64,000 nucleotides of DNA from Myxococcota bacterium (GTDB taxonomy: Bacteria > Myxococcota_A > UBA796), in assembly GCA_029251165.1 (NCBI GenBank), contig JAQXDW010000045.1, positions 290 through 64,289 on the forward strand. The letters are read 5' to 3'. This document shows, one piece after another, positions 150 to 60,130 of this stretch. The translations under genes were made by a program, and so were the position numbers. How positions within the stretch are numbered: position 1 is the stretch's first letter; every line of letters begins with the position of its first letter. The notes beneath the pieces were generated by a model. It was not told the origin of the DNA, did no database searches, and saw only the letters and a program-made list of their open reading frames with translations.

Positions 150-887
150 ATGAGGGTTCATCAGCTGGGTGAGGCTGGACATGAGATCCTGGCGCTCCAC
201 GGATTCACCGGGAGCGGCATGGACTTCGAGGCGCTGGTGCCCCACCTGTCGGTCGGAATGCTGGCACCCGATCTGCCCGGTCACCTCGGGACACCACCGA
301 TGAGCATGCCCGAGGCCGTTGCTGCGCTGGCGCCCCTGGCGGAGGGGCGGGTGGTGATGGGCTACTCAATGGGAGGACGGACCGCGCTCCAGCTTGCCTG
401 TGCGGTGCCGGTTCGCGCGCTGGTGTTGATCGGCGCGACCCCTGGGATTGCGGATCTGGAGGCGAGGCGCGCCCGCCGGCTGGCGGATGCGTCGCTGGCG
501 AGACACATCGAGGCCTGCGGGGTCGAGGCGTTCCTGGCGGAGTGGATGAACAAGCCGATCATCGCCAGCCAGCAGCGCATACCGAGCCCGTGGCGAGAGC
601 GAATAATGACACGAAAGAGCCGCCACTCTGCGACCGGCCTCGCGGGAAGCCTGCTGGGGATGGGGACCGGATCGATGGCGTCGGTCTGGGGTTGTCTACC
701 GACCACTCCGATGCTGCTTGTGGTTGGAGAGGAAGATCGTAAATTCATGGCGATAGCGCAGTCTGTGGCCGAAGCGGCGGCTGGAGCTGAGGTCGCGGTG
801 GTCTCAGGCGTCGGACACTGCGCGCACCTGGAGGCGATCGAGCGAACCGCTTCGGTGATTCATCGTTTCCTTCAACGCCTTGGTTGA
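150..887 (+). CDS. alpha/beta-fold hydrolase (MenH-like esterase/thioesterase family)
   Basis: ORF 3..887 begins at a GTG; the first in-frame ATG is at 150 (MRVHQLG). It carries an HGFTGSG oxyanion region and a GYSMGGRTALQLA nucleophile elbow (GxSxG), as in alpha/beta hydrolases. It is convergent with the ligase gene downstream. Confidence 0.6.
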   Translation: MRVHQLGEAGHEILALHGFTGSGMDFEALVPHLSVGMLAPDLPGHLGTPPMSMPEAVAALAPLAEGRVVMGYSMGGRTALQLACAVPVRALVLIGATPGIADLEARRARRLADASLARHIEACGVEAFLAEWMNKPIIASQQRIPSPWRERIMTRKSRHSATGLAGSLLGMGTGSMASVWGCLPTTPMLLVVGEEDRKFMAIAQSVAEAAAGAEVAVVSGVGHCAHLEAIERTASVIHRFLQRLG

Positions 888-1080
888 GCGTAGAATTGAT
901 GTGTAACGGTCTGAATGTTGTTTTATGTTACGGGTGTTTCGCTGGCGTTCCGTCACATATGATGTCGCGGCCGTGCTGTGTCTCCGAGTGTCCCGGACGC
1001 GAGGATGGTCCGCGTACACCTTGTTGCCGTGGATTCTTCTCCCAGGCAGTCGACCTCCAGCAGCCGGAGCATCGCCCCGC

Positions 1081-2517
1081 TCACCGACCGCTCAGCATGG
1101 CCTCCAGCCGACGACGATCCACCTTTGCGTTGTGCCGTGGGTCCACCGGAACGGCCTCGACCTCGACCACCCGCACGCCACCTGCAGCCTCGGTGACCAT
1201 TGCCTCCCATCCCGCTGGGGCTCCGCTGACCGCACACGCCAGCACCGCCTCTCCGGCGACCTCCGCCAGCCCTGCCTTCACCACAAACGGCAGCAGCTCT
1301 GCGGGGGCCTCGACCTGCATCGGCCACACCCCACCGACCCGGCCTCCGGCGCGTCCCACCAGCCACAGCCGTCCGTCCGCGTCTCGGTAGCCAGCATCTC
1401 CGGTGCGGTGCCACACCCGGCCATTCTCGCGGACCTTGTTCTCTGCGTCGGCCTCGGGGTCCTGGTCGTATCCCTGGTTTACATGGGGGCCCGCGACGAG
1501 GATCTCGTCTTCATCGAGCCGCACCTGGAGCTGTCGAACCGGCTGCCCGACCAGCGCGCCTCGGCCGCTGCGGGCGCCGTCTTCTAAATCCTGGAGGTTC
1601 TCTCGTACCGGCAGCACTGCGATGGGCTCGGCCTCCGTGGAGCCATACACGATTGAAATCTCTGCTTCTGGTGCGGCTCTACACAGCGCCTTGAGCATCC
1701 CGACGGGAACCCTGGCACCGCCGGTGTGGAGGTGCTCCAGCCCGGAGAGGCACTCGCCACGCTCCAGGAGGCGTCGGGCGAGGGGGCCGAAGAACGCCGG
1801 AGAGCCAGAGATGCTGGTCACACCAACCGTGCGGATTTGGTCGATCAGGCGGTCGGGATCCACGTCGCCTGGACGGCGCAGATCGGCATCCGCCAGCACA
1901 CAGGTCGCGCCGCTGGCAAGGGAGTGGAGCAGGAAGACCGGCAGGGTCGGCATGTCGACGTCGCCTGGTGCCAGCCGGAGGTGCTCGGCGAGGATGCGGT
2001 GCTGGGTGAGCAGGAAGGCATGCGAGCGCGCGATGGCCTTGGGGGTGCCGGTGGTGCCGGTGGTGAACGTCAGCAGGGCAGGGTGATCACCGGGGTCGAC
2101 CGGCGGGATGACGCCCTGGATTTGGCTGAGCCTGCGGTGCGGTATCGGGATGAAGCCGGTCGAGACGTACAGCCCAAGTCCCCGCAGCGGACGAAGCTTG
2201 AGACGGAGGAGGTGGGCCCTGGGAGAGCCGATCATCGCCACAGGGGCATGTCGGGTGAGGATCGTGGAGATTGGTGCCGAGGGATCGATGAGCACCGCGG
2301 TTGCACCGACATGAAACAGGGCGAGCAGGGCGACGTACAGCTCGATGCTCATCGGAACGAGGAGGACCACCCGATCGCCTGGCCGCAGTCCGAGGTCCAC
2401 CAGCCCCCCAGCCACAGTCCCGACCCGCTGGCGGAGGGCTGTGAAGCTGAGTGTTCGACCATCGGGCTCGATGATTGCCGGTCGTTCGGCGTCCTGGAGG
2501 AGCGCGACGATGTTCAC
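1081..2517 (-). CDS. AMP-dependent synthetase/ligase (acyl-CoA or acyl-ACP ligase family)
   Basis: 478 aa. The AMP-binding signature LTFTTGTTGTPKAIARSH (T[SG]G[ST]TGxPK) is present. Its ATG overlaps the stop of the upstream GNAT-like gene (2514..2517), which suggests an operon. Confidence 0.8.
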   Translation of the reverse strand: MNIVALLQDAERPAIIEPDGRTLSFTALRQRVGTVAGGLVDLGLRPGDRVVLLVPMSIELYVALLALFHVGATAVLIDPSAPISTILTRHAPVAMIGSPRAHLLRLKLRPLRGLGLYVSTGFIPIPHRRLSQIQGVIPPVDPGDHPALLTFTTGTTGTPKAIARSHAFLLTQHRILAEHLRLAPGDVDMPTLPVFLLHSLASGATCVLADADLRRPGDVDPDRLIDQIRTVGVTSISGSPAFFGPLARRLLERGECLSGLEHLHTGGARVPVGMLKALCRAAPEAEISIVYGSTEAEPIAVLPVRENLQDLEDGARSGRGALVGQPVRQLQVRLDEDEILVAGPHVNQGYDQDPEADAENKVRENGRVWHRTGDAGYRDADGRLWLVGRAGGRVGGVWPMQVEAPAELLPFVVKAGLAEVAGEAVLACAVSGAPAGWEAMVTEAAGGVRVVEVEAVPVDPRHNAKVDRRRLEAMLSGR

Positions 2518-3338
2518 AGCGTCTTCTCAAACAAGACGTACTCTCGAATCCGCTCGCCGAGATCGCGAGAGATGCGCTGAGAGCGGTTGCCGTGTGCCAT
2601 CAGGGCATGGACTCCGCCGCCAGAGAAGCCCAGCGCAGCGCCGACTCGGTGCGTCTCTCCGACCAGCCAGCTTCCCAGTCCCAGCCCGCGAAATGCTGGC
2701 ATCACTGCAAGGGTCTTGATGACGAATTCCCCACGCTGTGGGCTGAAGGCATCGGGGTAGCTGAAGCAGAAGCCGCCCGGAGCACCGCTCGGTGAGCGGG
2801 CGAGCAGGGTGAGCTGCGGGGTGAGCAGCGGACGCACCGGAGCGTAGAGGGCTCCGAATGATTCACGGTCGATGGGGGTGTAGAAGGCGCTGTCGCCAAA
2901 CGAGGCCAGCGACATCTGCCAGAACAGATCCAGCGCGGACTCAAAGTCTCCCAGCGCGGTGAGATCCTCCAGCTGCCAGCCGGCAGCGCGCAGCGTGGTG
3001 TCTCGCTGGCGCGTGGCGGTGATCTGGGGAGTGTTTTCAGCATGGATCGAGGCGTAACGGTGCGCTTCGCTGTATCCTGCAGCCCGCCACGGGGCAGGGG
3101 AGGCGGTCGGCTCACCTGGAAAGTATGGCCGCTCGTTGGGGCCGATGTTGGCGCGGTACGCCGACCAGGTCGAGCCCGAGAGCGGGCCGAGCGCATGCGT
3201 GCAGCCGGCAGCACGCAGCCAGTCCTCTGCGGCCGTCAGCTCGCCGAGCGGATCGTCACTGGTCGGCGCACCGATACAGCCGACGGGGTGCAGGCCAGGA
3301 TTGACCCAGGCAGACAGCGGGGCGGGGGCAGTGCGCAT
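2514..3338 (-). CDS. GNAT-fold acyltransferase (candidate N-acyl amino acid / OlsB-like N-acyltransferase)
   Basis: 274 aa. The C-terminal region KTLAVMPAFRGLGLGSWLVGE resembles GNAT motif A (R/Q-x-x-G-x-G/A). It is translationally coupled to the AMP-ligase. The substrate is not inferable from sequence alone. Confidence 0.5.
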   Translation of the reverse strand: MRTAPAPLSAWVNPGLHPVGCIGAPTSDDPLGELTAAEDWLRAAGCTHALGPLSGSTWSAYRANIGPNERPYFPGEPTASPAPWRAAGYSEAHRYASIHAENTPQITATRQRDTTLRAAGWQLEDLTALGDFESALDLFWQMSLASFGDSAFYTPIDRESFGALYAPVRPLLTPQLTLLARSPSGAPGGFCFSYPDAFSPQRGEFVIKTLAVMPAFRGLGLGSWLVGETHRVGAALGFSGGGVHALMAHGNRSQRISRDLGERIREYVLFEKTL

Positions 3339-3360
3339 GGCTCAGTTTACTACTGACCGC

Positions 3361-5037
3361 TCAGAGCGTGATCTCGAAGGCGCTGTAGCTGGTGGTGGTG
3401 TTTCGAGGGAAGACCACCGCGCGGAGCTGACGGGCGAGGCAGTCGCGGACGGTGGTGTCTCCGCTGGTTACATCCAGGCCGATGAGCACGCCGAGCGGAG
3501 AGACATAGCCTCGGAGGCTCGTCTCGCTGGTGATGCAGGTGTCGACCCCGGTCCGAACGGGCTCGATCGCGTTGGTTACCTCGACGAGGCTCAGATCCGA
3601 TCGCGAGTCGGAGGCGACGGGCCGGAAGGTCATCTCGTCGGTCAGCTCCAGTCGCGGCGTGAGGACCAGCAGCTCTCCCTCGGGGACCGTGACCTCTTCC
3701 TCCCAGCTCTGGAAGCCGCTCGCCTCGATGCGCACGGTGAACGGCTCATCGATCGGGAAGGCCTCGTGGATATCGATCACCCCGCCCAGGCCCAGCGTCT
3801 GACCATCGATCACGATGTCTCCGGTCGGTGGGTCGGCGCGGACAACGAGGTGGGTCTGGGTGGAGGTTGCCATGTGCTGAAGCCCAGCGAGCAGGGGAAA
3901 GCCAACGAGGGCGGCCACTGTGAGCACCGCTCCGACGGTCAGCAGCTGCTTGATGTAGACCTTCCGTCGGATCTCGATGAGCACGGTCCGGTTGCCGCAG
4001 CGACGGGTGGCGATGGTCACCTGGACCTCGCCCCGATCCTCGGGCATCGCCATCGGATCGACGGTGACGGTGATGGTCTGCTCGGGCTGGCGGGGATCGA
4101 GCGTGGCCGGAGAGGCGCTCGCCCAGGGCTGATCGACCCGGATCGTGCCGGCCATCTCTCCGCGACCGGTGTTCTTCACCACGATGGAGAGGTTGAGCGG
4201 CTGTCGAGCCGGGCGGGGGCGGATGACATCGGGGGCTTCGACCACGAGCTTGGGAACAAGCAGGACCGGTCGGGTCCCTGTGACGACCGCTGCGACAGCC
4301 GCATCGAGCTCGGTGCTGGGCTCCTCGATGGACTCTGGAGTGATCGGTGCCAGCTCGCTGAGCGGCGGGGGCTCGGGGAAGATGCGCTGGTACTGGTAGT
4401 CGTACAGGCGACGACGCTCGGCATCTCCCAGCACCCACCACGCAGCCTCCAGCGCAGTGCTCAGGCGCCGAAACCGCTCGCGATCGGTGATGTTGTTGAT
4501 CCACTTCCGACGTCGCTTGTAGAACGTCTCCAGCTGCTCGTGCGGAAGGAGAGGGTGAATCCCCAGCGCGGAGTAGTGGTCCGGCAGCTCACCCGCGCGA
4601 ACCAGATCCTTCTCGGTGAGGATCCGATCCAGGCATCCCTCGGCGATGTCTGCGGGAATGCCGATTTGTTCTGCCTGCTTTGCAACTGCGATCTCCGCCA
4701 GCGGGGTGAACTCCCCGTGGATGAGCGCACCCAGGATGAACATCTCCAGCTGATCCAGGCCGCCGCTGCGGATCTGAGCGTCGATGAACCGGAGGTAGTC
4801 TGTCCGGCTCTGGAGGAGGAGGTCTCGGAGACGGCTGAAGTTTTGGATGAACCAGGTCGCTTCGGCGCGGTCCTGGGAATTGTCCTGCTGGCCCTGTGCC
4901 CAGCTGTGACGATCCTCAAGGCCGGCTTCGCTCTCTCGGATCGAGGCTGTTGGCTTAATCCTCAGGTATGCGAAGAGCGTCGGTGACTCAAAGCGCGCCA
5001 GGTCAGTGTGCAGCTGCTCAAATGTACGGAAATCCAT
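3361..5037 (-). CDS. membrane protein with degenerate J-like domain (no HPD), one TM segment and a PEGA-like C-terminal domain
   Basis: 558 aa. DHYSALGIHPLLPHEQLETFYKRRRKWINNITDRERFRRLSTALEAAWWVLGDAERRRLYD aligns to the DnaJ J-domain consensus, but HPD is replaced by ITD. A hydrophobic helix (LLTVGAVLTVAALVGFPLLAGL) follows. The C-terminus VVRADPPTGDIVIDGQTLG...TVRIEASGF is PEGA-like. The gene lies 22 nt upstream of the GNAT gene on the same strand. Confidence 0.5.
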   Translation of the reverse strand: MDFRTFEQLHTDLARFESPTLFAYLRIKPTASIRESEAGLEDRHSWAQGQQDNSQDRAEATWFIQNFSRLRDLLLQSRTDYLRFIDAQIRSGGLDQLEMFILGALIHGEFTPLAEIAVAKQAEQIGIPADIAEGCLDRILTEKDLVRAGELPDHYSALGIHPLLPHEQLETFYKRRRKWINNITDRERFRRLSTALEAAWWVLGDAERRRLYDYQYQRIFPEPPPLSELAPITPESIEEPSTELDAAVAAVVTGTRPVLLVPKLVVEAPDVIRPRPARQPLNLSIVVKNTGRGEMAGTIRVDQPWASASPATLDPRQPEQTITVTVDPMAMPEDRGEVQVTIATRRCGNRTVLIEIRRKVYIKQLLTVGAVLTVAALVGFPLLAGLQHMATSTQTHLVVRADPPTGDIVIDGQTLGLGGVIDIHEAFPIDEPFTVRIEASGFQSWEEEVTVPEGELLVLTPRLELTDEMTFRPVASDSRSDLSLVEVTNAIEPVRTGVDTCITSETSLRGYVSPLGVLIGLDVTSGDTTVRDCLARQLRAVVFPRNTTTSYSAFEITL

Positions 5038-5203
5038 TGTGGGACGGATCTACCTGAGCAGACGAGGGACCCGCAAGCTGCTCCTGCCCTTGAGAATGTC
5101 ATGAGTCTGTGGTCCGTTGACATCGGTGGTTGGTCGCACAACAGCGCAGCCTCTGTCGCTTCAGACTTTACCGGGAGCGCTGGACTGGGCATCATGGCTT
5201 CAG

Positions 5204-6712
5204 ATGTCGCGGTTCTACCACTTTACTGTCAGCACTCTCCGGTTCATCGTCCGGCGATACTTCCGCGAGGTCGAGGTCATCGGCCTGGAGCACCTGCCGG
5301 AAGACGGGGGCGGCATGCTGGTCTCTTGGCATCCCAACGGCATGATCGATCCGGGCCTCATCCTCACCCACTTCCCCCGGCAGGTCATCTTCGGTGCGCG
5401 TGATGGGCTGTTCCGATGGCCTGGCCTGGGCTGGATGATGAAGAAGATGGGGGCGGTTCCCATCTACCGGGCGATGGATCAGCAGCGCGCGGATCCTGAG
5501 GCGCGCCGGAAGGCCAACAACAAGAGCCTCAATGCGCTGGCGAGTGCGGTCGCGCAGGGGCGGTATTCCTGTCTGTTCCCCGAAGGCGACAGCCACGACT
5601 CTCCCAACCTGCTCGACCTCAAGACCGGCGCGGCACGCTTCTACTACCAGGCCCGAACGCTGAAGGCGGAGGGAAGCGAGGATCCGGTTATTATCCCGGT
5701 TGGTCTTCACTATGACGCCAAGCGGACGTTTCGTTCGAGTGTCCTGATCGCCTTTCATCCACCGATCTCGCTGTCGGAGTACCTGGGATCTCTGCCGGAG
5801 CCCGACGAGCCGCCTCAGCTGCTCAAGGAGCGCTATCGGGCACTGACCACGGAGATCGAGCGGGTGCTTCGTGAGGTGGTCCATGCCACGGAGAGCTGGG
5901 ATCTTCACTACCTGATGCATCGGGTCCGCAAGCTCTCGCGGGCGGAGCGAGGGGTTCGGGCTGGTGCGGAGCTCGACAAGCCGATGATGGCAGAGCGGAC
6001 GCTGGGCTTTGCCCGGGTCTGGGCGGGCTACTACACTCGGCTGGAGAGCCACCCAGAGCAGGTCGCGGTCCTCCGGTCGCGTCTGTCGGAGTATGATCAG
6101 GATCTCCGGGCGCTGGGGCTGGAGGATCACGAACTGGACAAGCCGCCCCGCCTGGCGAGTCCCTGGCTGGCTGCGATTCTTGCGCTACAGGTCGTCCTGG
6201 TGTTCTTCCTGCTGCCGCCGATTCTTCTGGTCGGCTACATCGTCAACCTTCCGCCGGCCCTGGGGCTGCTCGTGCTCTCCAAGAAGTTCTCCCGGCGCAG
6301 GAAGGACGAGTCCTCCATCAAGCTGATGTTCGGGGTCATCGCCTTCCCGGTCACCTGGCTCGCGGCGGGCATCGGGGCGGGCCTGACCCATTGGTGGCTG
6401 CACGAGCTGTTTCCCCGGATCCCCAACACCCCCGCCCTCGCTGGGCTGGTGGTGGTGCTGCTGGCGATATTCGGCGGGATGGTTGCGCTGCGGTACATCC
6501 GGCTGGCTCGGGAGACCGGCCGAGCGGTTCGGATTCGGCTGACCCGCGCGCGGCGCAGGCTGGCCCTGGCGCGGCTGCGGGTGGAGCGCTCGGAGCTGTA
6601 TGATGCGATCATGATGTTGGTGGGTGACCTCGATCTGCCTGGTGCTGTTCGTCCCGATGGCAAGGTCGTCTCAGATGAGCAGAACCAGCGCGCCAAAGGC
6701 TGGCTGAAGTAA
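5204..6712 (+). CDS. PlsC-family (lysophospholipid/glycerolipid) acyltransferase with a C-terminal multi-TM extension
   Basis: Acyltransferase motif I HPNGMIDPG (H-x4-D) and motif III FPEGDSHDSP are present. The C-terminal ~250 aa contains several hydrophobic helices. The start is taken at ATG 5204 (MSRFYHF); the ORF-track start at 5117 is a TTG. The gene is divergent from the 5037..1081 operon. Confidence 0.7.
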   Translation: MSRFYHFTVSTLRFIVRRYFREVEVIGLEHLPEDGGGMLVSWHPNGMIDPGLILTHFPRQVIFGARDGLFRWPGLGWMMKKMGAVPIYRAMDQQRADPEARRKANNKSLNALASAVAQGRYSCLFPEGDSHDSPNLLDLKTGAARFYYQARTLKAEGSEDPVIIPVGLHYDAKRTFRSSVLIAFHPPISLSEYLGSLPEPDEPPQLLKERYRALTTEIERVLREVVHATESWDLHYLMHRVRKLSRAERGVRAGAELDKPMMAERTLGFARVWAGYYTRLESHPEQVAVLRSRLSEYDQDLRALGLEDHELDKPPRLASPWLAAILALQVVLVFFLLPPILLVGYIVNLPPALGLLVLSKKFSRRRKDESSIKLMFGVIAFPVTWLAAGIGAGLTHWWLHELFPRIPNTPALAGLVVVLLAIFGGMVALRYIRLARETGRAVRIRLTRARRRLALARLRVERSELYDAIMMLVGDLDLPGAVRPDGKVVSDEQNQRAKGWLK

Positions 6713-7243: not shown

Positions 7244-8083
7244 ATGTGGCTGATGCTTGCCTGCCAGCCGGATCCGAGTCCGGCACCACCCTCCGATACC
7301 TCCACCATCTCCTCCTCAGAGACCGCTGAGCCAGCGCCGGAGGTGGTTGTCGAGATTCCTGCGCCTGTGCTGTCTGCGGAGGGCGTCGCGGCGGCCATCG
7401 AGTCGGTCTTCGTCAGCGGAATGCCCAGTCCGCTCCTGCCGAGACGGATCTACCTGGAGTCCTTCGCTGGTCGAGACTCCAGCTGTCCTGGCGGCAAGGG
7501 CTACAACCTGCCCGGGGCCTTCCAGGGCTGTGTCGCGGAGAGCGGCTGGCTGTATGCGGGGGTCGCGGAGTATGACGGCAGCGTCGATCCGGACGACCTT
7601 CGGGACTTCAGTCTGCTTGCGGACTGCTACATGATCGATCCGGACGGCAATTGGTTCGTCGCTGCCGGGGAGCTGCTGCTGGAGCACAGCGGAGATGAGA
7701 ACGGCGGGATGCTACACGCAGAGCTGAGCGGGACCTACAGCTTTGCCCCGGCGGGCGGCTGGATGGCTCCAGCGGGTGCCGGCGCGGTGCTCAGCCAGAG
7801 CGCTGCCTGGGATCACACGGGCTGGCAGCTCGCCATCGACGGTGTGGTCACCGACGGGACCACCTCCGTTCGCCTGGAGGATCTCTCGGTGAGCAGCGGA
7901 GAGTGTGCTGGCGTGCCCTCAGGGGTCTACGGGCTGCGCGGGGATGGCGGCTACTGGTACACCCTGGCGGGTGAGGACTGCGGCTGCGGGATGGTCACCT
8001 GGGCAGACGGCTCGCAGCTGGGCGAGGCCTGCGTGGATCTCTCCGCAGCATCCGCTGGACTCATCGAGGCGGTGCGCCAGTGA
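7244..8083 (+). CDS. hypothetical lipoprotein
   Basis: ORF 7049..8083; the internal ATG at 7244 gives MWLMLAC with a lipobox. The stop overlaps the next start (ATGA at 8080..8083). Confidence 0.45.
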   Translation: MWLMLACQPDPSPAPPSDTSTISSSETAEPAPEVVVEIPAPVLSAEGVAAAIESVFVSGMPSPLLPRRIYLESFAGRDSSCPGGKGYNLPGAFQGCVAESGWLYAGVAEYDGSVDPDDLRDFSLLADCYMIDPDGNWFVAAGELLLEHSGDENGGMLHAELSGTYSFAPAGGWMAPAGAGAVLSQSAAWDHTGWQLAIDGVVTDGTTSVRLEDLSVSSGECAGVPSGVYGLRGDGGYWYTLAGEDCGCGMVTWADGSQLGEACVDLSAASAGLIEAVRQ

Positions 8084-9744
8084 TCCTGCTCCTTCTTCTC
8101 TCCTGCGGTCAAGAGCGAACCCTCATCTGTATGGAGGGACACAGCCTGGGACCAGACGACGTCTGCTACCCCAACGACACCGCAGCACCCGACCCCCTCA
8201 CCCTCGACGACTCCGCCTACACCCGCCTCGATGCTCCCCGGCTGCTGCGCCGGATGAGCCTGGACCTGCTGGGCGTCCTGCCGCGCCAAGAGGCACTGGA
8301 TGCGGTGGAAGCCGATCCGTCGCAGCTTGCGGTCTATCGGGATGAATTCTTCCTGGACCCGCGCCTTGAGGAGCGCCTCGTCCTGCTGCTCTCAGAGCGG
8401 TGGCACACCCGGGTCGACGAGTTCCTGATCTTCTACCTGGAGTACCAGGAGCTGGCATTTGATGATGACAATGAGTATCCATTTGAGCGGTCGGTGGGAG
8501 AGGAGCCGCTGCGCCTGATGGCCCACGTCATCGCCAACGATCTGCCCTGGTCAGAGATCGTCACCGCCGACTACACCCTCGCCAATCCCCTGCTCGCGGA
8601 CATCTGGCCGATAGCCCATCCGGGCGGAGACGACTGGGCGGTCAGCACCTACACCGACGGACGACCCGCTGCCGGTGTGCTCTCTACAAACGGCCTGTGG
8701 TGGCGCTACTACAGCACCGTCACCAACTACAACCGGGCTCGGGTCGCTGCGATCACCCGCTTGCTGATCTGCGAGGACTATGCCTCTCGCTCGATCAGCT
8801 TCTCGGAGTCTGGAGCGCTGTCGGACGGGGCAGACCTTGAGGATGCGATCCGAGAGAGTCCGTACTGCATGGGGTGTCACTCCGCGATCGATCCGATCGC
8901 GGTGTCCCTGTTCGGGTTCTGGCCTGCGAACGAGTACAACATCCACGAGGTCGACGTCTACCACCCCGAGCGTGAGGCGATGGGGGCGGAGCTGCTGGGG
9001 GTCGAGGCGGAGTGGTATGGGGATCCGGTCTATGGTCTACACGAGCTGGGCCTGCACATCGCCGCCGATCCGCGCTTCTCCCGGTGCGCGGTGCAGAGCA
9101 TGGCGGAGCTGCTGTGGCGTCGGCCGATCGGGGTCGAGGACTTTGATCGCATCGAGCTCCTCCGGCAGGACCTGGAGTCTGCGGACCTGCGCATGCTCCC
9201 ACTGCTCACCGCAATCACCGACGACGCGGTCTACCAGGCCGGAGCCGTCGAGGGCAGCGACACGGCCGTCTCCACGCGCCTGATGACCCCCGATCAGCTC
9301 TCGGCCACGATCGCAGACCTCACCGGGTTCACCTGGACCTGGCGCGGCTTCGATCAGATGGACAACGACACCTACGGCTACCGCGCGCTGGCTGGCGGGG
9401 TGGATGGGGCCTACATCACCACGGCTCAGGAGTCTCCGGGCATGACCTGGGCGCTCGTCGTGCAGCGGCTCGCGGAGGCTGCGACCGGCTACGACCTCCG
9501 CAACGGACTGGCCAGCTCGACGATGCTTCAGGGAATCACTGAGGATGCCCGACCCGGCGATCCCGCGTTTGACCTCGTGCTCGACCAGCTGCACTGGCGG
9601 CTGTACGGGGTCCGACCAGATGATGCCTGGCGGTCTGATGTCTCGGCGCTCTGGGAGGCCATCTTCGCCAGCGAAGATGCCAAGACAGCCTGGCAGGCGG
9701 TGGCGGTGGCGATGCTGCGCGACCCAGCATTTGTGGGGTATTGA
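8080..9744 (+). CDS. DUF1549/DUF1553-type (PSCyt2/PSD1) lipoprotein with a CxxCH motif
   Basis: Lipobox LLLLSC. RRMSLDLLGVLPRQEAL matches the DUF1549 signature RRxxLDLxGxxP. YCMGCHSAIDPI matches the C-x2-CH...DP motif of DUF1553. The stop overlaps the next start at 9741. Confidence 0.65.
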   Translation: MILLLLLSCGQERTLICMEGHSLGPDDVCYPNDTAAPDPLTLDDSAYTRLDAPRLLRRMSLDLLGVLPRQEALDAVEADPSQLAVYRDEFFLDPRLEERLVLLLSERWHTRVDEFLIFYLEYQELAFDDDNEYPFERSVGEEPLRLMAHVIANDLPWSEIVTADYTLANPLLADIWPIAHPGGDDWAVSTYTDGRPAAGVLSTNGLWWRYYSTVTNYNRARVAAITRLLICEDYASRSISFSESGALSDGADLEDAIRESPYCMGCHSAIDPIAVSLFGFWPANEYNIHEVDVYHPEREAMGAELLGVEAEWYGDPVYGLHELGLHIAADPRFSRCAVQSMAELLWRRPIGVEDFDRIELLRQDLESADLRMLPLLTAITDDAVYQAGAVEGSDTAVSTRLMTPDQLSATIADLTGFTWTWRGFDQMDNDTYGYRALAGGVDGAYITTAQESPGMTWALVVQRLAEAATGYDLRNGLASSTMLQGITEDARPGDPAFDLVLDQLHWRLYGVRPDDAWRSDVSALWEAIFASEDAKTAWQAVAVAMLRDPAFVGY

Positions 9745-11006
9745 TGTCGATCAGCAGGCGAGGACTCGGCGGACTGATGGCGGGCGGGCTGCTCCTGCCC
9801 CGAGCGCTCCAGGCGGCCTCCGGTAGCGGGGATCGGAAGTTCCTGTTTGTCTTCTGTGTGGGCGGCTGGGATCCGACCTGGGTGTTCGCGGATCTGCTGG
9901 GCGCGCAGGATGTCTACACCGATCCGACCGCGGAGCTGGGCACGGCTGGCGGGCTGGAATTTGTCGACTCTGCTGGGCGGCCATCGGTTCGGAGCTTCTT
10001 TGAGCGCTACGGCGACCGGTGCTGCATCCTCAACGGCCTCGAGGTCCGCTCGATCACCCACGAGGCCTGTCGCCGCATCATCCTGACGGGCGGCACCGCT
10101 GGACTGACCGATGACTGGCCCGCAATCATCGCTGGGAACACCACCGACTTCACCCTGCCTGATCTGGTGCTCTCTGGACCGTCCTACACCTCGCAATACA
10201 CCGGCTCGGTGATGCGGGTTGGTCCCGACGGACAGCTCGGGAAGCTGCTGTCCGGGTCCGCCTTGTCCAGCAGCACGCTGCCGACACAGGCCCTCCCCGA
10301 GAGCGCCAACGCTGACATCGAGGCGTTCCTTCGCCGGCGCAGCGCAGCCGCCCAAGAGGTCGCAGCCGGTCAGTCCGCACAGTTCCTCCGGGACTTCGAC
10401 ACCTCGCTCGGGCAGCTTGATGCCATTCGGGCGATATCCGGGCAGCTGGATCTGTCGGTGAACGGTCTGAACTACGTCTACGTCCAGGAGCGCGTGCTCC
10501 CGGCGCTGGACTGCTTCGAGCTTGGGCTGACCCGCTGTGCTGTCGTAGAGCATGCCGGTGAGTGGGACATCGGCTGGGACAGCCACTCTGGCATCGATCG
10601 GCAGGGGGCGCACTACTCGGTGCTGTTTGACGATCTCGCTGGGATCGTGGAGACACTGTCTCAGCGCGCTGGCAGCCAGGGCGGATCGCTGCTCGATGAG
10701 GTCACGGTGGTGGTCTTCTCTGAGATGGGCCGCGCGCCACAGCTCAACGTCACCGGCGGCAAGGACCACTGGACCTACACCTCTGCGATGCTCATCGGCG
10801 CGGGGGTGGCCGGAGGCCAGGTCATCGGCGGCTACGACGACAGCCTCTTTGGGCGCGCGGTCGATCTCCGCACTGGCGCGACCACAGACAGCGGCTCTGG
10901 GCTGACAGCGGCGAACCTCGGGGCCACCCTGCTGGCCATGGCCGATATTGATCCTGCAGAATTTACCGAAGCGGAACCGATCAGCGCGGCGATGTCTGAG
11001 GGCTGA
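9741..11006 (+). CDS. DUF1501 family protein with a twin-arginine signal (sulfatase-like fold)
   Basis: The N-terminus MMSISRRGLGGLMAGGLLLPRALQAA is a Tat-type signal. The gene is paired with a DUF1549/DUF1553 protein immediately upstream. The overlapping 540-aa minus-strand ORF 9528..11150 is judged a high-GC shadow. Confidence 0.7.
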   Translation: MMSISRRGLGGLMAGGLLLPRALQAASGSGDRKFLFVFCVGGWDPTWVFADLLGAQDVYTDPTAELGTAGGLEFVDSAGRPSVRSFFERYGDRCCILNGLEVRSITHEACRRIILTGGTAGLTDDWPAIIAGNTTDFTLPDLVLSGPSYTSQYTGSVMRVGPDGQLGKLLSGSALSSSTLPTQALPESANADIEAFLRRRSAAAQEVAAGQSAQFLRDFDTSLGQLDAIRAISGQLDLSVNGLNYVYVQERVLPALDCFELGLTRCAVVEHAGEWDIGWDSHSGIDRQGAHYSVLFDDLAGIVETLSQRAGSQGGSLLDEVTVVVFSEMGRAPQLNVTGGKDHWTYTSAMLIGAGVAGGQVIGGYDDSLFGRAVDLRTGATTDSGSGLTAANLGATLLAMADIDPAEFTEAEPISAAMSEG

Positions 11007-11034: not shown

Positions 11035-12348
11035 TCAGGTCGCCGCCCATGCCAGCGCACCCGCAAGCAGGCTCGCCAGGAGCCGTCGGCCGACGAGCCG
11101 CGTTCGAGACAGCAGCGCAAAGGCGAACACCCCTCCAGCGGCGGCCGCACCGATGCTCTTCAGCGGGAGGGTCGGATCGATCAGGAGGACGGGCAGCATC
11201 GGAGCCAGCGCGCCGGAGAAGCTGAGGGGAAGCCGCGGCCAGTCTCGGCTCTGCGCCATGTTCTGCATCGCGATCGCGCCGCCGGTCGCCAGGGTCGCCA
11301 GGTAGGGAACGAACAGGGTGTCGTCCTGGAAGTGCCCAAACGCCAGCACCACGATCATCGAGCCCATGGTGGCCGGGAAGATCTCGGTCATGTCGGTCTG
11401 ACGGACATCCTCTGCGGGTACGGCGGCGATGAAGATGCCGTAGAGGGCTGCGAGGGGAAGCGCCCAGCTCCAGCCGCCCAGCGCCCAGGCGAGCGTTCCG
11501 ACGAGGAAGACGGTCAGCCCGCCAGCCTCGGTGAGCCCGCTTCGTCCCCAGGTCAGCACCATCAGCGCCAGCGAGACGATCATTCCCTCGAACCAGCCGG
11601 ACAGCTCCGCCAGTCCCATCCGCAGCGAGCGCTCCAGGATGAGGAAGCAGGCATAGGGAATGAACAGGTTGTCGGTGCCGCGTACGCTGATCGCCTCGGT
11701 GGTGGTCGCCATGATCGCGACGACGAGGGTCACCAGCAGCATCTCTGGCCAGCCGGGACGACCCGCGAGGGCGAGCGCGGCGAGGACGATGGTGAAGGTC
11801 AGCCCGAAGAAGGTCAGCGATCCCTCGACCGAGCGGGCGCCGTCCATCACCCGGTAGCGCCGCCTCCCCACGCGCTTGCCGACGAGCGCTGCGCCAGTGT
11901 CAGAGATGGCGAGCACCACCACGGGCGGGCAGTACAGGAGCGGATCGCCACGGGACAGCCAGAAGATTCCGAGGACTGCGAGCGGGTAGTAGTACGCCCC
12001 TGAGGTCTGCCGCTCCACGCCGTGCACGCTCTCCAGCATCCCGGTCAGCTTTCCGCCGAGCAGGAGCACGAAGAACGCCGCAGCCAGGACGGCAACGGTC
12101 AGGGTGTGGTCGAGGAGCCAGGGAAAGGCCGCGACGATGAAGCCCGCGCCGAGGTGTGACAGCTTGCGGGTGTACTCCGTCTCGATCGAGAAGACGCGCC
12201 GGAGGACCTCACCCGCTGCAAACAGCAGCACGATCCCCACCGCGACTGCTGAGGCTCCTCTCCAGTCTGCCAGCACCGCCGCTGTGATCGCGCCCGGAAG
12301 ATCGGAGGGGATTTCCACACCGCCACTGTACCCTGCGCGAGACCGCAT
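11035..12348 (-). CDS. polytopic membrane protein, CTP-dependent lipid kinase-like (phytol/dolichol kinase / CdsA superfamily)
   Basis: 437 aa with many hydrophobic helices. ISDTGAALVGKRVGRRRYRVMDGARSVEGSLTFFG resembles the D-x-x-A-x-x-x-G...K(T/S)xEGS signature of dolichol/phytol kinases. Confidence 0.4.
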   Translation of the reverse strand: MRSRAGYSGGVEIPSDLPGAITAAVLADWRGASAVAVGIVLLFAAGEVLRRVFSIETEYTRKLSHLGAGFIVAAFPWLLDHTLTVAVLAAAFFVLLLGGKLTGMLESVHGVERQTSGAYYYPLAVLGIFWLSRGDPLLYCPPVVVLAISDTGAALVGKRVGRRRYRVMDGARSVEGSLTFFGLTFTIVLAALALAGRPGWPEMLLVTLVVAIMATTTEAISVRGTDNLFIPYACFLILERSLRMGLAELSGWFEGMIVSLALMVLTWGRSGLTEAGGLTVFLVGTLAWALGGWSWALPLAALYGIFIAAVPAEDVRQTDMTEIFPATMGSMIVVLAFGHFQDDTLFVPYLATLATGGAIAMQNMAQSRDWPRLPLSFSGALAPMLPVLLIDPTLPLKSIGAAAAGGVFAFALLSRTRLVGRRLLASLLAGALAWAAT

Positions 12349-23972: not shown

Positions 23973-25379
23973 CTACAGCGCATTCGTCCAGCTCATGCTG
24001 TCGGAGTCGGCGTTGCTGTGCGTGCCGTCGCGGGTGACGGAGGCGTAGGTCTTGCCGGTCGCCTCTTGCCACCGCTTCCGGGCGTTGTAGAGGGTCTTGG
24101 CACCGGACTGGATGCCGTAGACGGCATGCCGCAGGGCGCCCGGGTTCCAGACGCGCCCCTCGATGAGGTCGTCATCGGGGGAGATGAGGCCTTGCTCACG
24201 GGCAAGCTGTGCGAGCCGAGTGTGCGGGTAGATGCGGATCGGCTGCATCAGCAGGAGGGTGAACATCCGCAGCTTGCCGCCGAGCTCCCAGCGGGCGTGG
24301 GCGAGGAACTTGACGATGCTCATCAGGCTGCGGAGATCTTCTCCTGGAGAATTCAGGAAGAAGCTGTACTCGACGTCCATGTTGTGCTTCTTGGCGACCT
24401 GGACGGTGTAGAGCATGTCCTCGTAGCGGAAGTTCTTGTCGAGGTTCTTGAGCATCCGATCATCGACGTGATCGGGGGAGAACGACAGCAGCCCGCAGCC
24501 GGCACGCTTCAGCCAGATGATCAGCTCATCAGGGAGGGTCTTGCGGTGCTCGTTGAACCACGCCGACCACTGCACGTCGAGCTTGCGGCGGACGATCTCC
24601 TTGCAGATGTCGATGGCGTGGGCGACGGGGATGTTGAAGATCTGGTCGCAGAAGAAGAACTGTCGGACGCCGTACGTGTGAACCATGTCCTCGATCTCGT
24701 CCACGACGTCGTTGGCTGGACGCATGCGGACGTTGTGGCCGAGGAGGAACGTATCGGAGCAGTGGATACAGCGGAGCGCGCAGCCCCGCTTGGCCTGGAG
24801 TCCGACGCTGACGAAGGACGAGGCGAGGTAGGGCTGGTGAGGCACCAGATCGCGCCGGGGGTGGCGCAGCGACTTGAAGTCGACCTTGGAGGGCGGTCCG
24901 GTGTACTTCACCTCCTCGCCATCTCGGTAGTAGACCCCGGGAACCTTCCAGGGTGCGTTCAGGGTCTCTAAGAGCTGCGGGAGGCGCTCTTCGGCTTCTC
25001 CCCAGATGCCCATGTCGATGGCGTTGACCCGCTTCATCATCGCCTCTGCATAGAGGCTGAACGCGGTACCACCGGCGATGACCTTCACGCTGGGGCACTT
25101 CTTCTTGATGAGAAGGATGGTGTCCTGCTGGGGCTCAAAGTCGTCGGTGTACTTGTGGGGCATCCCGACCTTCATGTTGCGAAGGGAGATACCGACGACT
25201 TCAGGACTGAACCGGTCGAGGCATGCAGCGAGCGCCTCAAACGGGGCATCCCGGTGAAGGTTGAGATCGAAGATCTCGACATCGTGACCATCGAGATGGG
25301 CCGCCAGGTAGGCGAGCCCGATCGGATAGACCAGCTCCATGTCGAGTGCTGTAAAGGCCTGAACCAGAAGGACGCGCAT
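23973..25379 (-). CDS. cobalamin-binding-domain radical SAM protein (class B rSAM)
   Basis: N-terminal B12-binding-like Rossmann region (VKVIAGGTAFSLY). The CxxxCxxC cluster GCALRCIHCSD is followed by a radical-SAM core. The start is an ATG immediately preceded by a GCTATATCCAG motif. Confidence 0.8.
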   Translation of the reverse strand: MRVLLVQAFTALDMELVYPIGLAYLAAHLDGHDVEIFDLNLHRDAPFEALAACLDRFSPEVVGISLRNMKVGMPHKYTDDFEPQQDTILLIKKKCPSVKVIAGGTAFSLYAEAMMKRVNAIDMGIWGEAEERLPQLLETLNAPWKVPGVYYRDGEEVKYTGPPSKVDFKSLRHPRRDLVPHQPYLASSFVSVGLQAKRGCALRCIHCSDTFLLGHNVRMRPANDVVDEIEDMVHTYGVRQFFFCDQIFNIPVAHAIDICKEIVRRKLDVQWSAWFNEHRKTLPDELIIWLKRAGCGLLSFSPDHVDDRMLKNLDKNFRYEDMLYTVQVAKKHNMDVEYSFFLNSPGEDLRSLMSIVKFLAHARWELGGKLRMFTLLLMQPIRIYPHTRLAQLAREQGLISPDDDLIEGRVWNPGALRHAVYGIQSGAKTLYNARKRWQEATGKTYASVTRDGTHSNADSDSMSWTNAL

Positions 25380-46175: not shown

Positions 46176-48983
46176 TTACTTCTCCGCGCTGCCATTCTTC
46201 TCCGGCAGCATTCCCTCAATCGTGCGCCCCAGCCGCGTCCCGCCGACGACATCCTGCAGGATGCTGGCGACGTCCTTGCCCTGGAACAGGCTCACGAGGT
46301 TCATGTTCGCCGCGACCTCCTCCAGCAGCATCTTGTCGCCGACCGCAGTCAGTGCCTCCACCAGCGCAGGCTGGACGGCCTTGCGCTCTGCGACCGTCGC
46401 CGCGCTCTGTGCCGCCAGCTCCTCGAGTCGGATCCGGGTCATCTCGGCCTCGTGGGTCTGCGCTTCTGCATGGCGGAGCCGGTCAGCCTCGACGGCTGCT
46501 GCGATCGCTTTCTCAGACTGGGCCAGCTTCGCGGCGCTCTCCTGGTGCTCGCGGGCCAGCCGAGCGGTCAGCTCGCCCTCGAGCCGGGACGACGTGAGGC
46601 GGACCTCTTCTGCGGAGACCTTCTCTCGGCTCGCCAGCGTCAGCAGCTCGCGCTCGTGCTCCAGCTTCGCGACCACGCTCTCCAGCGCCGCCCGACGGGT
46701 CCGGGCCTCCTGGAGCATCTCCATGCGCTGCCGCTCGATGTCGTGGCGCAGCTTCTCGCTCCGCAGCTTCTCCTCTCCCTGGCGGTCGGAGATGTGCAGG
46801 CTGACGCTCTCTCGCTGCACGCCCTCCAGCAGGCCCGCGATCTCCTGGTCGAGGATGGTGCTGGAGAGCACCTCCACCTCCGTGACCCGCATCCCGTTCT
46901 CACCAAATGGGCGCCCGGTGCGGCCCTGCTCGGTCTTCTCGCCGAGGATGGTGTCTCGAATGACGCCGGGCACGTTGGGCCACAGCGCAGTCAGCGAGAG
47001 CTGGCGGCAGCGGCTTCGGACCAGCGAGCGGAGGTGATCGCAGAGCACCCCGACGTAGTTCTCGTGGGTGAACCACTGGTCCTTGTGGGCATCATCGAAG
47101 GTGACCTGGTAGCTGACTCGGATGTGCAGCTCGACGAAGTCGGCGGTCTGTGCCCGGATGACGTCGGTCACCCGGTTTCCGACGGTGCGCAGGAAGCAGG
47201 TCTTGATCACCTGCTTGTCGGCCTTCGGAGTGCCGGTAGAGAGGGTCATGGAGACCAGCGTCTCTTCGTACTCCAGCAGCTCCATGCACGGACCCTGGAT
47301 CACCCGGTAGCCGTCTGAGGAGGCGGCCATGATCGCGGTGTTCGGGGGCACGGTGATCGAGATGGCCCAGGGGGTGACCATCGGCTTGAGGGTCTTCTTG
47401 TGGGGCTCTCCCTCTGCGATCCAGAGGTTCCACTGCTCGGTCGGCACCCGCCGGGTGATCTGGACCTCCTTGCGCGGATCGACGAGGTATGACCGCTTCC
47501 CACGGACCAGCCGCGCCTCGCCGCTCTCCAGATCCCGGACGTAGATGCCGCTCTTCTGATCGATGCCGATCGCCTCGATGAAGGTCTCGGTGTGGTCGTT
47601 GCCGAAGTGGGGCTGACCGTTGAGGGGATCGAGGATCTCGATCTCGTTGAACGGAAAGAAGAACGAATTGACCCCGGTGAGGATCATCTCATCGCCTGGA
47701 TAGTAGATCTCCTGGGGCAGCTCGGCTCCACGAGGCAGCCGGACGGCCAGCTTCTCCCTCGGGATCTGCCGGATGAACCGCAGCCAGAGCCCGCGCTGGG
47801 GCAGCAGCTCATAGGCGTAGTAGATCCGGTTGCTGGAGCCCTCGGTGAGGAAGGTGTCGTAGGGGCCTGGGAAGACGCGGGCCGGGCCGACCTTGATCTG
47901 CCGCTTGCCGTCGGCGTCGAGGATGACGCAGAACTCCTTCTCACCGAGCACCACCGCCTGACGGATGAGGCGGTTCTTGCGGACCTCTCGCTCCAGCGCG
48001 CTGCGGTGGATCGGGCTGTTGAGCAGCGCCTGGATGGTCTCGGAGGTCAGCGAGCCGTCGCTGCCGCCTTCAAGACGAGGAGGCGCAGCAGGGCGCTGAG
48101 AGATCTGCTGCTGGATGGCCTGTCGCCGCCGGGGGCTCTGGTCCGTCTTGCTGCGTCGGCTGCGCTTGGAGTACCGCTGCGGCTCCGCCTCAAGCTCCTC
48201 AGCGGACTGCTCCGCCACGATGAACTCTTGGTCTACGATGTCTGGCTCGCGAGCGAACTCCGGCAGCGGCATCTCCTTGAGGATGCGGCGTGCCGCATCG
48301 GCGGTGACCTGTCTGCCGTTGCCATCGACCGAGAGATCCGGGACCACATCGACGCCGGTTGGCGGGATGTAGAGCTGGGTGTCCAGGCCACGGATCACGA
48401 TGAGCTGGCCACGGGTCAGGTTGATCTCGCTGGTGGAGATGTCATCAGCCGGGGCATCTTCCTCGACGGTCGCGCTGGTGATCTGCGCGGAGCGGGCCGT
48501 GATCTCGTAGTAGGGAGCCGTCGGATCGACTCCACCGTAGACCTTGACGACGAGGTACTGGTTGCTGGCGAGCTCGTGGGCATCGCGGACCTCGCAGCGC
48601 TGGCCGGGGCGGAGATAGAACGAGCAGGGACCCGGGATCATCGCCCGCGTTCCGTTCTTGAGCTGCTTGGGCTCGTTGCGGTTGGGGCGGAAGTGCCCGT
48701 TGGGGTGGCCCTCCTCGCGCTCGTTGAGGGGGTTGAACAGCACCGCATACTGGGAATCGGTGACCTCGACCATGCGCTGCGGGCGGTTGTTGGGGCTCTC
48801 GGAGAAGCCACCCCGACCATCATCGACCACCACCCGGTCTGCGGCGGTGGGGGAGACCATGGTGGGGCCGACGTGGAGGATGACCTCTCCCTTGTCGTCG
48901 TCCTGCACCCAGAGGAACTCTCGCTCGGTGACCGGAATCTTGCTGCGGCTGCCGCGTGCAGCTTCAGAATCGTATCGGCTCAT
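46176..48983 (-). CDS. major vault protein (MVP) homologue
   Basis: 935 aa. Several segments align by eye to human MVP. [22 protein letters not shown]...[11 protein letters not shown] aligns with [18 protein letters not shown]...[31 protein letters not shown] aligns with [98 protein letters not shown] aligns with the MVP shoulder region [76 protein letters not shown]. A long Glu/Ala/Arg-rich coiled coil then matches the cap-helix. Confidence 0.8.
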   Translation of the reverse strand: [935 protein letters not shown]

Positions 48984-51049: not shown

Positions 51050-51151
51050 AGCGCTGATTCTTCAGTAGAGCGGAGAGAGTGAATTCAGTGGATGACCTTC
51101 ATGTGGGCTGGTATTATTTGGTTGGTTGACCAAACAATAAATGGGGTTGCC

Positions 51152-59987: not shown

Positions 59988-60130
59988 GGCTCCCTGATAA
60001 CTACAGCCGCCCTTCGCTCCAGCATCTCCGGTGCTTTTTTCTGTGAGGACTGTCCCCACAGTCTGAAATCTTGTCGGCTCGTGGTGTCCTCTGGACGTCG
60101 TGGTGTATGCGCCCTCCTCGGCTGGCCTGC

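Follow-up and report, generated by a model that had tools for sequence, protein, structure and literature searches.

The stretch of DNA analysed here, 64,000 nucleotides of contig JAQXDW010000045.1 from a Myxococcota bacterium (from herein the window), carries at 150-6712 a cluster of genes in which an adenylate-forming ligase is paired with an acyltransferase of the GNAT fold, next to a divergently transcribed membrane acyltransferase. Comparison with homologous loci suggests that the cluster is a reduced, Myxococcota-specific version of a ligase/tandem-GNAT/membrane-protein module that recurs across bacterial phyla. All five genes that an earlier note had reported for this cluster are present in the open reading frame (ORF) list and in Pfam and NCBIfam scans at the coordinates given below (lengths in amino acids, aa), where a sixth gene, outside the reported span, is added.

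150-887, plus strand: α/β-hydrolase, 245 aa (Abhydrolase_6, E 3e-19), convergent with the ligase gene; possible accessory component.
1081-2517, minus strand: adenylate-forming ligase of the ANL superfamily, 478 aa (PF00501, E 2.6e-43); core component.
2514-3338, minus strand: tandem-GNAT, putatively acyl-CoA-dependent acyltransferase, 274 aa, translationally coupled to the ligase; core component.
3361-5037, minus strand: membrane protein, 558 aa, with a J-like domain and a weak PEGA match.
5204-6712, plus strand: membrane acyltransferase, 502 aa, of the putative Sct1/Gpt2-like GPAT/DHAPAT type (acyltransferases of glycerol-3-phosphate, G3P, and of dihydroxyacetone phosphate, DHAP, respectively; PF01553, E 5.3e-17), divergent from the GNAT operon.
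11035-12348, minus strand: polytopic membrane protein, 437 aa, with a CTP_transf_1-like N-terminal domain; outside the 150-6712 span.

The cluster ORFs are real genes rather than chance ORFs, as homologues of each are conserved in other assemblies. The region is uniform in GC content. Translational coupling of the GNAT and ligase genes is borne out, with the TGA stop of the former overlapping the GTG start of the latter by 4 bp, as GTGA. The proposal of a lipid-related context is likewise supported, by the membrane acyltransferase and the CTP_transf_1-like membrane protein, and by the UbiA and DUF3419 (BtaA family) genes of the sister operons described below. Homologous loci and proteins are referred to by L-numbers and P-numbers, respectively, which are labels used here.

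In every readable locus, nine of the Myxococcota type and eight from other phyla, the GNAT gene adjoins the ligase gene. Of the 11 unfused loci whose gene coordinates are precise, nine show a start/stop overlap, which measures 8 bp in L019 and 4 bp in the other eight, and in L016 the two genes are fused, encoding a single 931-aa protein (P0230) that was confirmed on the contig. The ligase-acyltransferase pairing, which the earlier note had made a test of its reading, is therefore strongly conserved in related genomes. The trio of ligase, GNAT and membrane protein recurs in Gemmatimonadota, Acidobacteriota, Bacillota and Alphaproteobacteria, within an operon of six to eight genes that encodes the GNAT, the ligase, a UbiA prenyltransferase, a PPDK_N/Rph/phosphoenolpyruvate (PEP)-utilizer enzyme, a DUF3419 (BtaA family) protein and a membrane protein of about 450 aa. 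Gene order and membership vary, with 3-hydroxy-3-methylglutaryl-CoA (HMG-CoA) reductase or cytochrome P450 genes in some copies, and the carriers include cultured strains and a plasmid. The loci are as follows.

L007 4610-13761: Acidobacteriota operon.
L008: Planctomycetaceae locus in which the GNAT-ligase pair alone is kept, beside a divergent PEP-synthase-like gene.
L013 4024-12570: Gemmatirosa kalamazoonensis operon (J421_1813 and its neighbours).
L014 10001-20179 and L017 10001-20224: operons on complete or large metagenomic contigs.
L016: contig with the GNAT-ligase fusion.
L018 1287-12675: Brevibacillus laterosporus B9 operon of eight genes (NZ_CP011076.1, about 458.5-474.7 kb).
L019 523-8507: operon on a plasmid of Roseinatronobacter sp. 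S2 (P8S53_RS20205-20230).

No PF01553 gene occurs in the core of the cross-phylum operon. The PGAP annotation of the Roseinatronobacter GNAT and membrane protein is hypothetical, and a literature search found no paper on this gene set.

The membrane protein of this operon, unannotated in the other phyla, has its counterpart in the window at 11035-12348 (33% identity, E 2e-46 by tblastn). Homologues are found in the Gemmatirosa, Acidobacteriota, Brevibacillus and Roseinatronobacter operons at tblastn E-values of 2e-46 to 3e-18, altogether in seven of the eight other-phylum loci, and within 1-2 kb of the membrane acyltransferase gene in L005 and L012. The protein is the third conserved member of the ligase-GNAT module. 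It has multiple hydrophobic segments, and its residues 58-242 match PF01148 (CTP_transf_1) with E 7.4e-4 and 19.9 bits, under the gathering score of 24, as does the Brevibacillus homologue (E 6e-3, also under the gathering score); with the full-length protein and its homologue there is no PF01148 match. A motif in the N-terminal domain, ISDTGAALVGKRVGRRRY…RSVEGS, is aligned by hhalign to the corresponding motif of E. coli CdsA with E 0.2, which is not significant, and a PDB profile search with the 437-aa protein gave no matches. Kinship to CdsA, dolichol kinase and phytol kinase is probable on these alignments. Between this gene and the membrane acyltransferase gene, the window carries genes for a PSCyt2/PSD4-like protein (554 aa) and a DUF1501 protein (421 aa) at 8080-11006, of which a second copy with 47-48% identity lies on the opposite side of the cluster in L001 (15332-18195).

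The ligase contains the full set of ANL core motifs (A3 TTGTTGTPK, A5 YGSTE, A7 TGD, A8 GRAGG and the A10 lysine, K465, in PRHNAK), and is by these signs a complete adenylate-forming enzyme of the superfamily. Its full-length identity with the ligases that adjoin GNAT homologues in other phyla is 35-41%. The best-scoring named family in NCBIfam is PRK09274, which is fatty-acid-CoA-ligase-like (325.7 bits, cutoff 478), followed by OleC, whose models score 203.1 bits (cutoff 900) and 154.8 bits (cutoff 850). Alignment to an amino-acid-adenylating enzyme leaves a gap at the SFDF region, and the α-amino-binding Asp is absent from the ligase. Because of this absence, and because the best family is fatty-acid-ligase-like, the ligase is predicted to make acyl-CoA. 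The “fatty-acid-type” specificity that had been ascribed to it goes further than a score under the curated cutoff of the best family allows.

Two pathway contexts were considered for the ligase and set aside. An OleABCD-like olefin pathway was suggested by the OleC-like ligase, the adjoining α/β-hydrolase and a 3β-hydroxysteroid dehydrogenase (3β-HSD)-type reductase in L004, and was discarded for the lack of OleA and for scores far under the OleC cutoffs. A menaquinone context, with a MenH-like hydrolase and a MenE-like ligase, was rejected on a MenE model score of 92 bits against 330 and on neighbours that include no men genes.

In sequence searches the GNAT protein gives a marginal Acetyltransf_1 match alone, with no match in NCBIfam or among PDB sequences. 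Modelled with AlphaFold from 19 homologues, with high confidence (predicted local distance difference test, pLDDT, 89.6), it has a two-domain tandem GNAT fold. The nearest folds, MAB_4324 (7q3a), mycothiol synthase MshD (1ozp) and a glucosamine (GlcN) N-acetyltransferase (5kf1), are small-molecule amine N-acetyltransferases. The C-terminal half keeps the CoA-binding loop R-x-x-G-x-G as R217-G-L-G-L-G222, in agreement with the pyrophosphate-binding pattern Q/R-x-x-G-x-G/A of the superfamily, and the N-terminal half has an invariant motif of its own, GxTWxxYR…PxFxGEP. An aminoacyl-tRNA-dependent transferase of the MprF/FemX type was considered for this protein and rejected, because its CoA loop is intact and folds of that type come further down the ranking. 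Six arginines are invariant in the close family (R62, R70, R112, R231, R258 and R265), and R62 and R265 are still invariant across 40 diverse members, which suggests that the acceptor is anionic. The earlier note had proposed OlsB as the likely relative, to be checked against the Acetyltransf_5 model. At a maximum E-value of 10, none of the 40 family members matches Acetyltransf_5 (PF13444), while all 40 match Acetyltransf_1 and 14 match Acetyltransf_6; the protein is therefore not an OlsB relative, and its fold is that of an MshD-type tandem GNAT.

The GNAT has few close relatives (19 proteins, two GTDB species representatives and three short metagenome contigs). The wider family is large: among 1.84 billion cluster representatives, a profile search returned 2857 relatives at E ≤ 1e-3, of which 633 are at E ≤ 1e-30; most of the relatives are full-length matches of about 330 aa. 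Three fusions were found, to an AMP-binding ligase (P0230, the L016 protein), to DUF3419 (P0215) and to an MMPL domain (P0194, a partial protein). An MMPL/RND transporter gene is also present in the window at 60535-62787 on the minus strand, about 50 kb from the cluster.

The divergent acyltransferase gene starts at 5204, and its 502-aa product is 100% identical to NCBI protein P0020. It had been described as a PlsC-family enzyme with OlsA as a possible relative, and neither identity is upheld. With the OlsA models NF052552 and NF052553, whose cutoff is 300 bits, it reaches 25.9 and 20.3, and the PlsC/AGPAT model TIGR00530 scores 44.2 bits against 102.95. Instead of the PlsC motifs HX4D and FPEGTR, the protein carries HX5D (HPNGMID) and FPEGDSHD, motifs of Sct1/Gpt2 GPAT/DHAPAT enzymes, and shares with PlsC the PF01553 fold alone. 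Its motifs I (H43PNGMID49), II (V85PIYR89), III (F125PEGDSHD132) and IV (I163IPVG167) are invariant in 36 homologues, the invariant positions of motif I being H43, P44, N45, G46 and D49.

The likeness to fungal Sct1/Gpt2 rests on published motif patterns (PMC4207751, Table 1). The combination of HX5D and FPEGGSHD is unique to these microsomal GPAT/DHAPATs, and the fungal patterns are HxNxφφD for motif I, φPφxR for II, FPEG[G/T/I]S[H/Y]x for III and φφP[V/C]G for IV, with 26-35 residues between motifs III and IV (PMC4207751). Motif I of the window protein agrees with HX5D and HxNxφφD, and motifs III and IV are 30 residues apart, within the fungal range; at position 5 of motif III, where the fungal pattern has Gly, Thr or Ile, the protein has Asp. 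The spacer between motifs II and III measures 97-132 residues in Sct1/Gpt2 proper (fGPAT-A) and 21-104 in fGPAT-B (PMC4207751), and at about 35 residues in the window protein it fits fGPAT-B only. With most of these motif tests passed, the protein appears to be a GPAT/DHAPAT of the fungal Sct1/Gpt2-like type (from herein GPAT-like), and by analogy with yeast Sct1 and Gpt2, which use acyl-CoA with G3P and DHAP (PMC4207751), it may carry out acyl-CoA-dependent acylation of G3P or DHAP. Several members of its family bear the JGI label G3P/DHAP acyltransferase.

The N-terminal ~240 residues of the GPAT-like model fold like PlsC (5kym) and a plant GPAT (1iuq). The C-terminal half is a bundle of long hydrophobic helices, three or four of them at residues 316-435, and has no structural match. 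This C-terminal extension of about 250 aa had been called “unusual”; it is the norm among the listed members of a family with 894 matches at E ≤ 1e-5, drawn from Myxococcota and related metagenome-assembled genomes (MAGs). Lengths are mostly ~470-550 aa among the matches listed, and the extension appears normal for the family.

GPAT-like and GNAT genes are divergently arranged in the window and in L001-L003, L004, L005/L006, L012 and L022, an arrangement that holds to 50% GNAT identity while other flanking genes change. In L004, L005 and L022, where the 558-aa gene is absent, the two are directly divergent with a gap of 35-41 bp. In a rough neighbour-joining (NJ) tree of the GPAT-like family, the GNAT-adjacent copies fall in two separate branches. 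A functional link between the GPAT-like gene and the GNAT-ligase pair is plausible given this arrangement. Other features were observed near GPAT-like genes. At L004 370-2798, the GPAT-like gene shares one base with a gene for a 3β-HSD/NAD-epimerase-type reductase, which would fit a DHAP acyltransferase with an acyl-DHAP reductase. In a Sandaracinaceae MAG (L010 11154-14632), a tandem pair of lipoxygenase genes is found 1.7 kb downstream of the GPAT-like gene, and two group II intron reverse-transcriptase genes of identical length (RVT_1 and GIIM) lie directly downstream of it in L009 (10225-13602).

The remaining two genes seem to be more peripheral. The 558-aa protein has hydrophobic segments and a J-like domain at residues 149-217 (CbpA/DnaJ match, E 3e-4), which lacks the HPD tripeptide of J-domain co-chaperones, and its PEGA match is sub-threshold (E 0.0067). 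The gene is found in the closest relatives only, being absent from L004, L005 and L022, with only a 223-aa fragment matching in L012. It is present as the earlier note had it, while its place in the cluster is not supported, given its absence from more distant cluster versions; it is a lineage-specific insertion between the GPAT-like and GNAT genes and probably not part of the core. The α/β-hydrolase has the nucleophile elbow G71-Y-S-M-G and scores 172.9 bits with the MenH model TIGR03695, under the cutoff of 208.55. It lies near the GNAT-ligase pair in L001-L006 and directly upstream on the same strand in L021, and is absent from the operons of other phyla. Its neighbours in L001 and L004 are ATP-binding cassette (ABC) transporter genes, not men genes. 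In both (L001 9869-13642, L004 9510-13418) the hydrolase gene is the last in an apparent operon with genes for an ABC ATPase, a ~320-aa protein and an ABC-2-type membrane protein, and the window begins just inside this hydrolase/ABC-transporter operon.

From the family assignments, folds, motifs, gene coupling and conservation observed at these loci, we tentatively propose that the ligase makes an acyl-CoA, that the GNAT uses it to N-acylate an anionic amine, and that the GPAT-like enzyme builds the lipid anchor, a scheme that we regard as possible, with more doubt than confidence. The ligase would convert a carboxylic acid, probably a fatty or otherwise lipophilic one, to its CoA thioester, and the GNAT would transfer the acyl group to an anionic amine-bearing acceptor, such as perhaps a lipid head group or an amino acid. 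Acylation of G3P or DHAP by the GPAT-like enzyme, which has yeast relatives that use acyl-CoA, would give the anchor, and the CTP_transf_1-like protein might phosphorylate a lipid intermediate or activate it with cytidine diphosphate (CDP). What results would be an amino- or phospholipid in N-acylated form, from enzymes that have no kinship with OlsB and OlsA. For the sister operons, the amine acylated by the GNAT could come from the DUF3419/BtaA-like enzyme, and UbiA could supply a prenyl anchor instead of an acyl one. The DUF3419-GNAT and GNAT-ligase fusions fit the proposed order of steps.

Several points weigh against this scheme. Every substrate in it, the order of its steps and the participation of the GPAT-like gene are what we infer. 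The ligase is under the curated cutoff of every named NCBIfam family, and the CTP_transf_1 assignment is sub-threshold in Pfam (19.9 against 24 bits) and not significant in the CdsA alignment (hhalign E 0.2). The α/β-hydrolase is most MenH-like, and in L001 and L004 it belongs with ABC-transporter genes. On L011 and L021, both short contigs, the place directly upstream of the GNAT gene is not taken by a GPAT-like gene, and GPAT-like orthologues with 57-59% identity lie in unrelated neighbourhoods in other Myxococcota (L009 and L010); because of these loci, the adjacency could be inherited synteny beside a housekeeping gene. Homologues of UbiA, the PEP-synthase-like enzyme, DUF3419 and HMG-CoA reductase are absent from the 64-kb window by tblastn, and the product of this lineage may differ from that of the sister operons or be truncated. 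Of the fusions, that of P0230 was verified on its contig, and those of P0215 and P0194 are candidates.

Other explanations differ mainly in the role that they give to the GPAT-like gene and the GNAT. The module might make a non-glycerolipid metabolite, for example an isoprenoid-derived one, the adjacency of the GPAT-like and hydrolase genes being inherited synteny without a functional link. The cross-phylum core argues for this in lacking PF01553 and in having UbiA, PEP-synthase/Rph-like and DUF3419 partners, sometimes with HMG-CoA reductase or P450, as do the GPAT-like orthologues with unrelated neighbours and the missing adjacency in L011 and L021. It is less easily reconciled with a divergent GPAT-like/GNAT pair that is kept to 50% GNAT identity as the other flanks change, with an intergenic gap of merely 35-41 bp, and with the occurrence of GNAT-adjacent GPAT-like genes in two separate branches of the rough tree; we consider this explanation unlikely, if deserving of attention. 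A further possibility, which we would also hold to be rather doubtful, is fatty-acid salvage or phospholipid remodelling by a split analogue of E. coli Aas, in which the hydrolase would free fatty acids, the ligase re-activate them to acyl-CoA and the Sct1/Gpt2-like enzyme re-esterify them to G3P, DHAP or lysolipids, with the GNAT in a side role. The use of acyl-CoA with G3P and DHAP by yeast Sct1 and Gpt2 (PMC4207751) means that a neighbouring acyl-CoA ligase makes sense, the hydrolase gene is retained near the pair, and the L004 reductase gene that overlaps the GPAT-like gene fits an acyl-DHAP route. The PF01553 domain matches the Aas model weakly, with 41 bits, but against a cutoff of 1221, and salvage leaves unexplained both the constant coupling or fusion of the ligase and tandem GNAT and the presence of the GNAT-ligase pair in other phyla without any PF01553 gene.

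It is well established that GNATs acetylate the catalytic lysine of AMP-forming acyl-CoA synthetases, and some are encoded beside their targets. The tight pairing and fusion of GNAT and ligase are compatible with a Pat/AcuA-like regulator that would acylate the A10 lysine and so switch its partner off. The lysine targeted by Pat and AcuA sits in a PxxxxGK motif, whereas the A10 region of the ligase, PRHNAK, has no Gly before the Lys; the nearest folds are small-molecule N-acetyltransferases, the pair sits in operons of six to eight genes with a biosynthetic look, and the GNAT is also fused to DUF3419 and to an MMPL domain. Regulation of this kind is very improbable. We think it likewise very improbable that the cluster follows the OlsB/OlsA logic put forward in the earlier note, in which the GNAT would add a 3-hydroxy fatty acyl group to an amino acid and a PlsC-like enzyme an ester-linked chain, giving an aminolipid of the ornithine-lipid type. 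The genes for an N-acyltransferase and an O-acyltransferase are indeed neighbours, and the invariant GNAT arginines are compatible with an amino-acid acceptor, but neither OlsB nor OlsA models are matched. The 40 family members give no Acetyltransf_5/OlsB signal, the fold is a tandem GNAT against the single domain of OlsB, both OlsA scores lie under 26 bits against 300, HX5D and FPEGxSHD are motifs of GPAT/DHAPAT enzymes that act on G3P or DHAP, and OlsB uses acyl-ACP and needs no ligase.

A broader form of the proposed scheme would treat the ligase, the tandem GNAT and the CTP_transf_1-like protein as a “head-group” module that is portable and serves a new class of bacterial membrane lipid, with anchors that differ by lineage, which we offer as a speculative and rather unlikely extension. 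The Myxococcota anchor would then be an acyl chain from the yeast-type GPAT/DHAPAT, and that of Gemmatimonadota, Acidobacteriota, Bacillota and Alphaproteobacteria a prenyl chain attached via UbiA, with the BtaA-like enzyme supplying the amine.

Elsewhere in the window, the minus strand at 46176-48983 encodes a 935-aa vault-protein-like product, in a bacterial MAG, that matches PF11978, the shoulder domain of the major vault protein (E 1.5e-20), with a further, weak match to Vault_3. Genes for a B12-binding radical SAM enzyme (23973-25379, minus strand), a 2-oxoglutarate (2OG)-Fe(II) oxygenase fused to WD40 repeats (51092-52513, plus strand) and a PhoD phosphatase (58527-60059, minus strand) are also present.

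If the module does make a lipid, it would define a pathway to an aminolipid or acyl-lipid that is independent of OlsB and OlsA. The module is carried by cultured, tractable organisms (Gemmatirosa kalamazoonensis, Brevibacillus laterosporus B9 and Roseinatronobacter sp. S2), and the lipid hypothesis is therefore directly testable. A large group of Myxococcota also carries a putative GPAT/DHAPAT in which the signature motifs of fungal microsomal enzymes are present, which bears on the start of glycerolipid, and possibly ether-lipid, synthesis in these bacteria; the phylogenetic study from which the motif patterns come did not cover bacterial relatives of that family (PMC4207751). If the proposed scheme is wrong, the cluster would be an ordinary pair of acyl-CoA ligase and acetyltransferase beside a housekeeping acyltransferase.

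Compared with known systems, the cluster fails the membership tests for OlsB, OlsA, PlsC, Aas, OleC and PRK09274. It resembles the OlsB/OlsA pathway, and the related GlsB/GlsA, in that an N-acyltransferase and a PF01553 O-acyltransferase are encoded by neighbouring genes and a lipid product is expected. OlsB is a single-domain GNAT of the Acetyltransf_5 family with an acyl-ACP donor and no need of a ligase; here, by contrast, a tandem GNAT without an Acetyltransf_5 match is coupled to an ANL ligase, and the acyltransferase leaves the OlsA models unmatched and carries GPAT/DHAPAT motifs. With Sct1 (Gat2) and Gpt2 (Gat1) (KEGG K13507) that acyltransferase has in common motifs I-IV, spacings that match the fGPAT-B class and the character of a membrane protein, and differs from them in being bacterial, in its length of ~500 aa, in the ~35 residues between motifs II and III, and in the Asp instead of Gly at position 5 of motif III.

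ANL ligases are paired with GNAT N-acyltransferases in several systems, namely FadD33 (MbtM)/MbtK in mycobactin synthesis, SidI/SidF in fusarinine synthesis and ACSM/GLYAT in glycine conjugation. The likeness is one of logic, a carboxylic acid being activated by an adenylate-forming enzyme and then moved to an amine by a GNAT-fold transferase, whereas the pair described here is translationally coupled or fused and lies beside membrane-lipid enzymes. The GNAT is 13-14% identical in sequence to MAB_4324, MshD and the GlcN N-acetyltransferase, has its own invariant N-terminal motif and probably receives its acyl group from what the coupled ligase makes rather than from acetyl-CoA. OleC and PRK09274 are the best-scoring named families for the ligase (203 and 325.7 bits), which is nevertheless under their cutoffs of 900 and 478; there is no OleA thiolase, and the neighbouring hydrolase matches MenH-type models, with no OleB-type model among the matches listed.

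As for CTP_transf_1, a family that includes CdsA, dolichol kinase and the phytol kinase VTE5, the N-terminal domain of the protein at 11035-12348 aligns to PF01148 positions 70-215, and its DxGAxxxGxxxG…KSxEGS motif is aligned with that of E. coli CdsA at the hhalign E of 0.2; the match is sub-threshold, and an extra C-terminal membrane domain of ~200 aa without known relative sets it apart. E. coli Aas, an acyl-ACP synthetase fused to a 2-acyl-glycerophosphoethanolamine (2-acyl-GPE) acyltransferase, likewise combines an ANL ligase with a PF01553 acyltransferase, but the genes here are separate and divergent, with the GNAT interposed as the constant partner of the ligase. The enzyme chemistries are thus familiar, and the gene set that combines them is uncharacterised and widespread.

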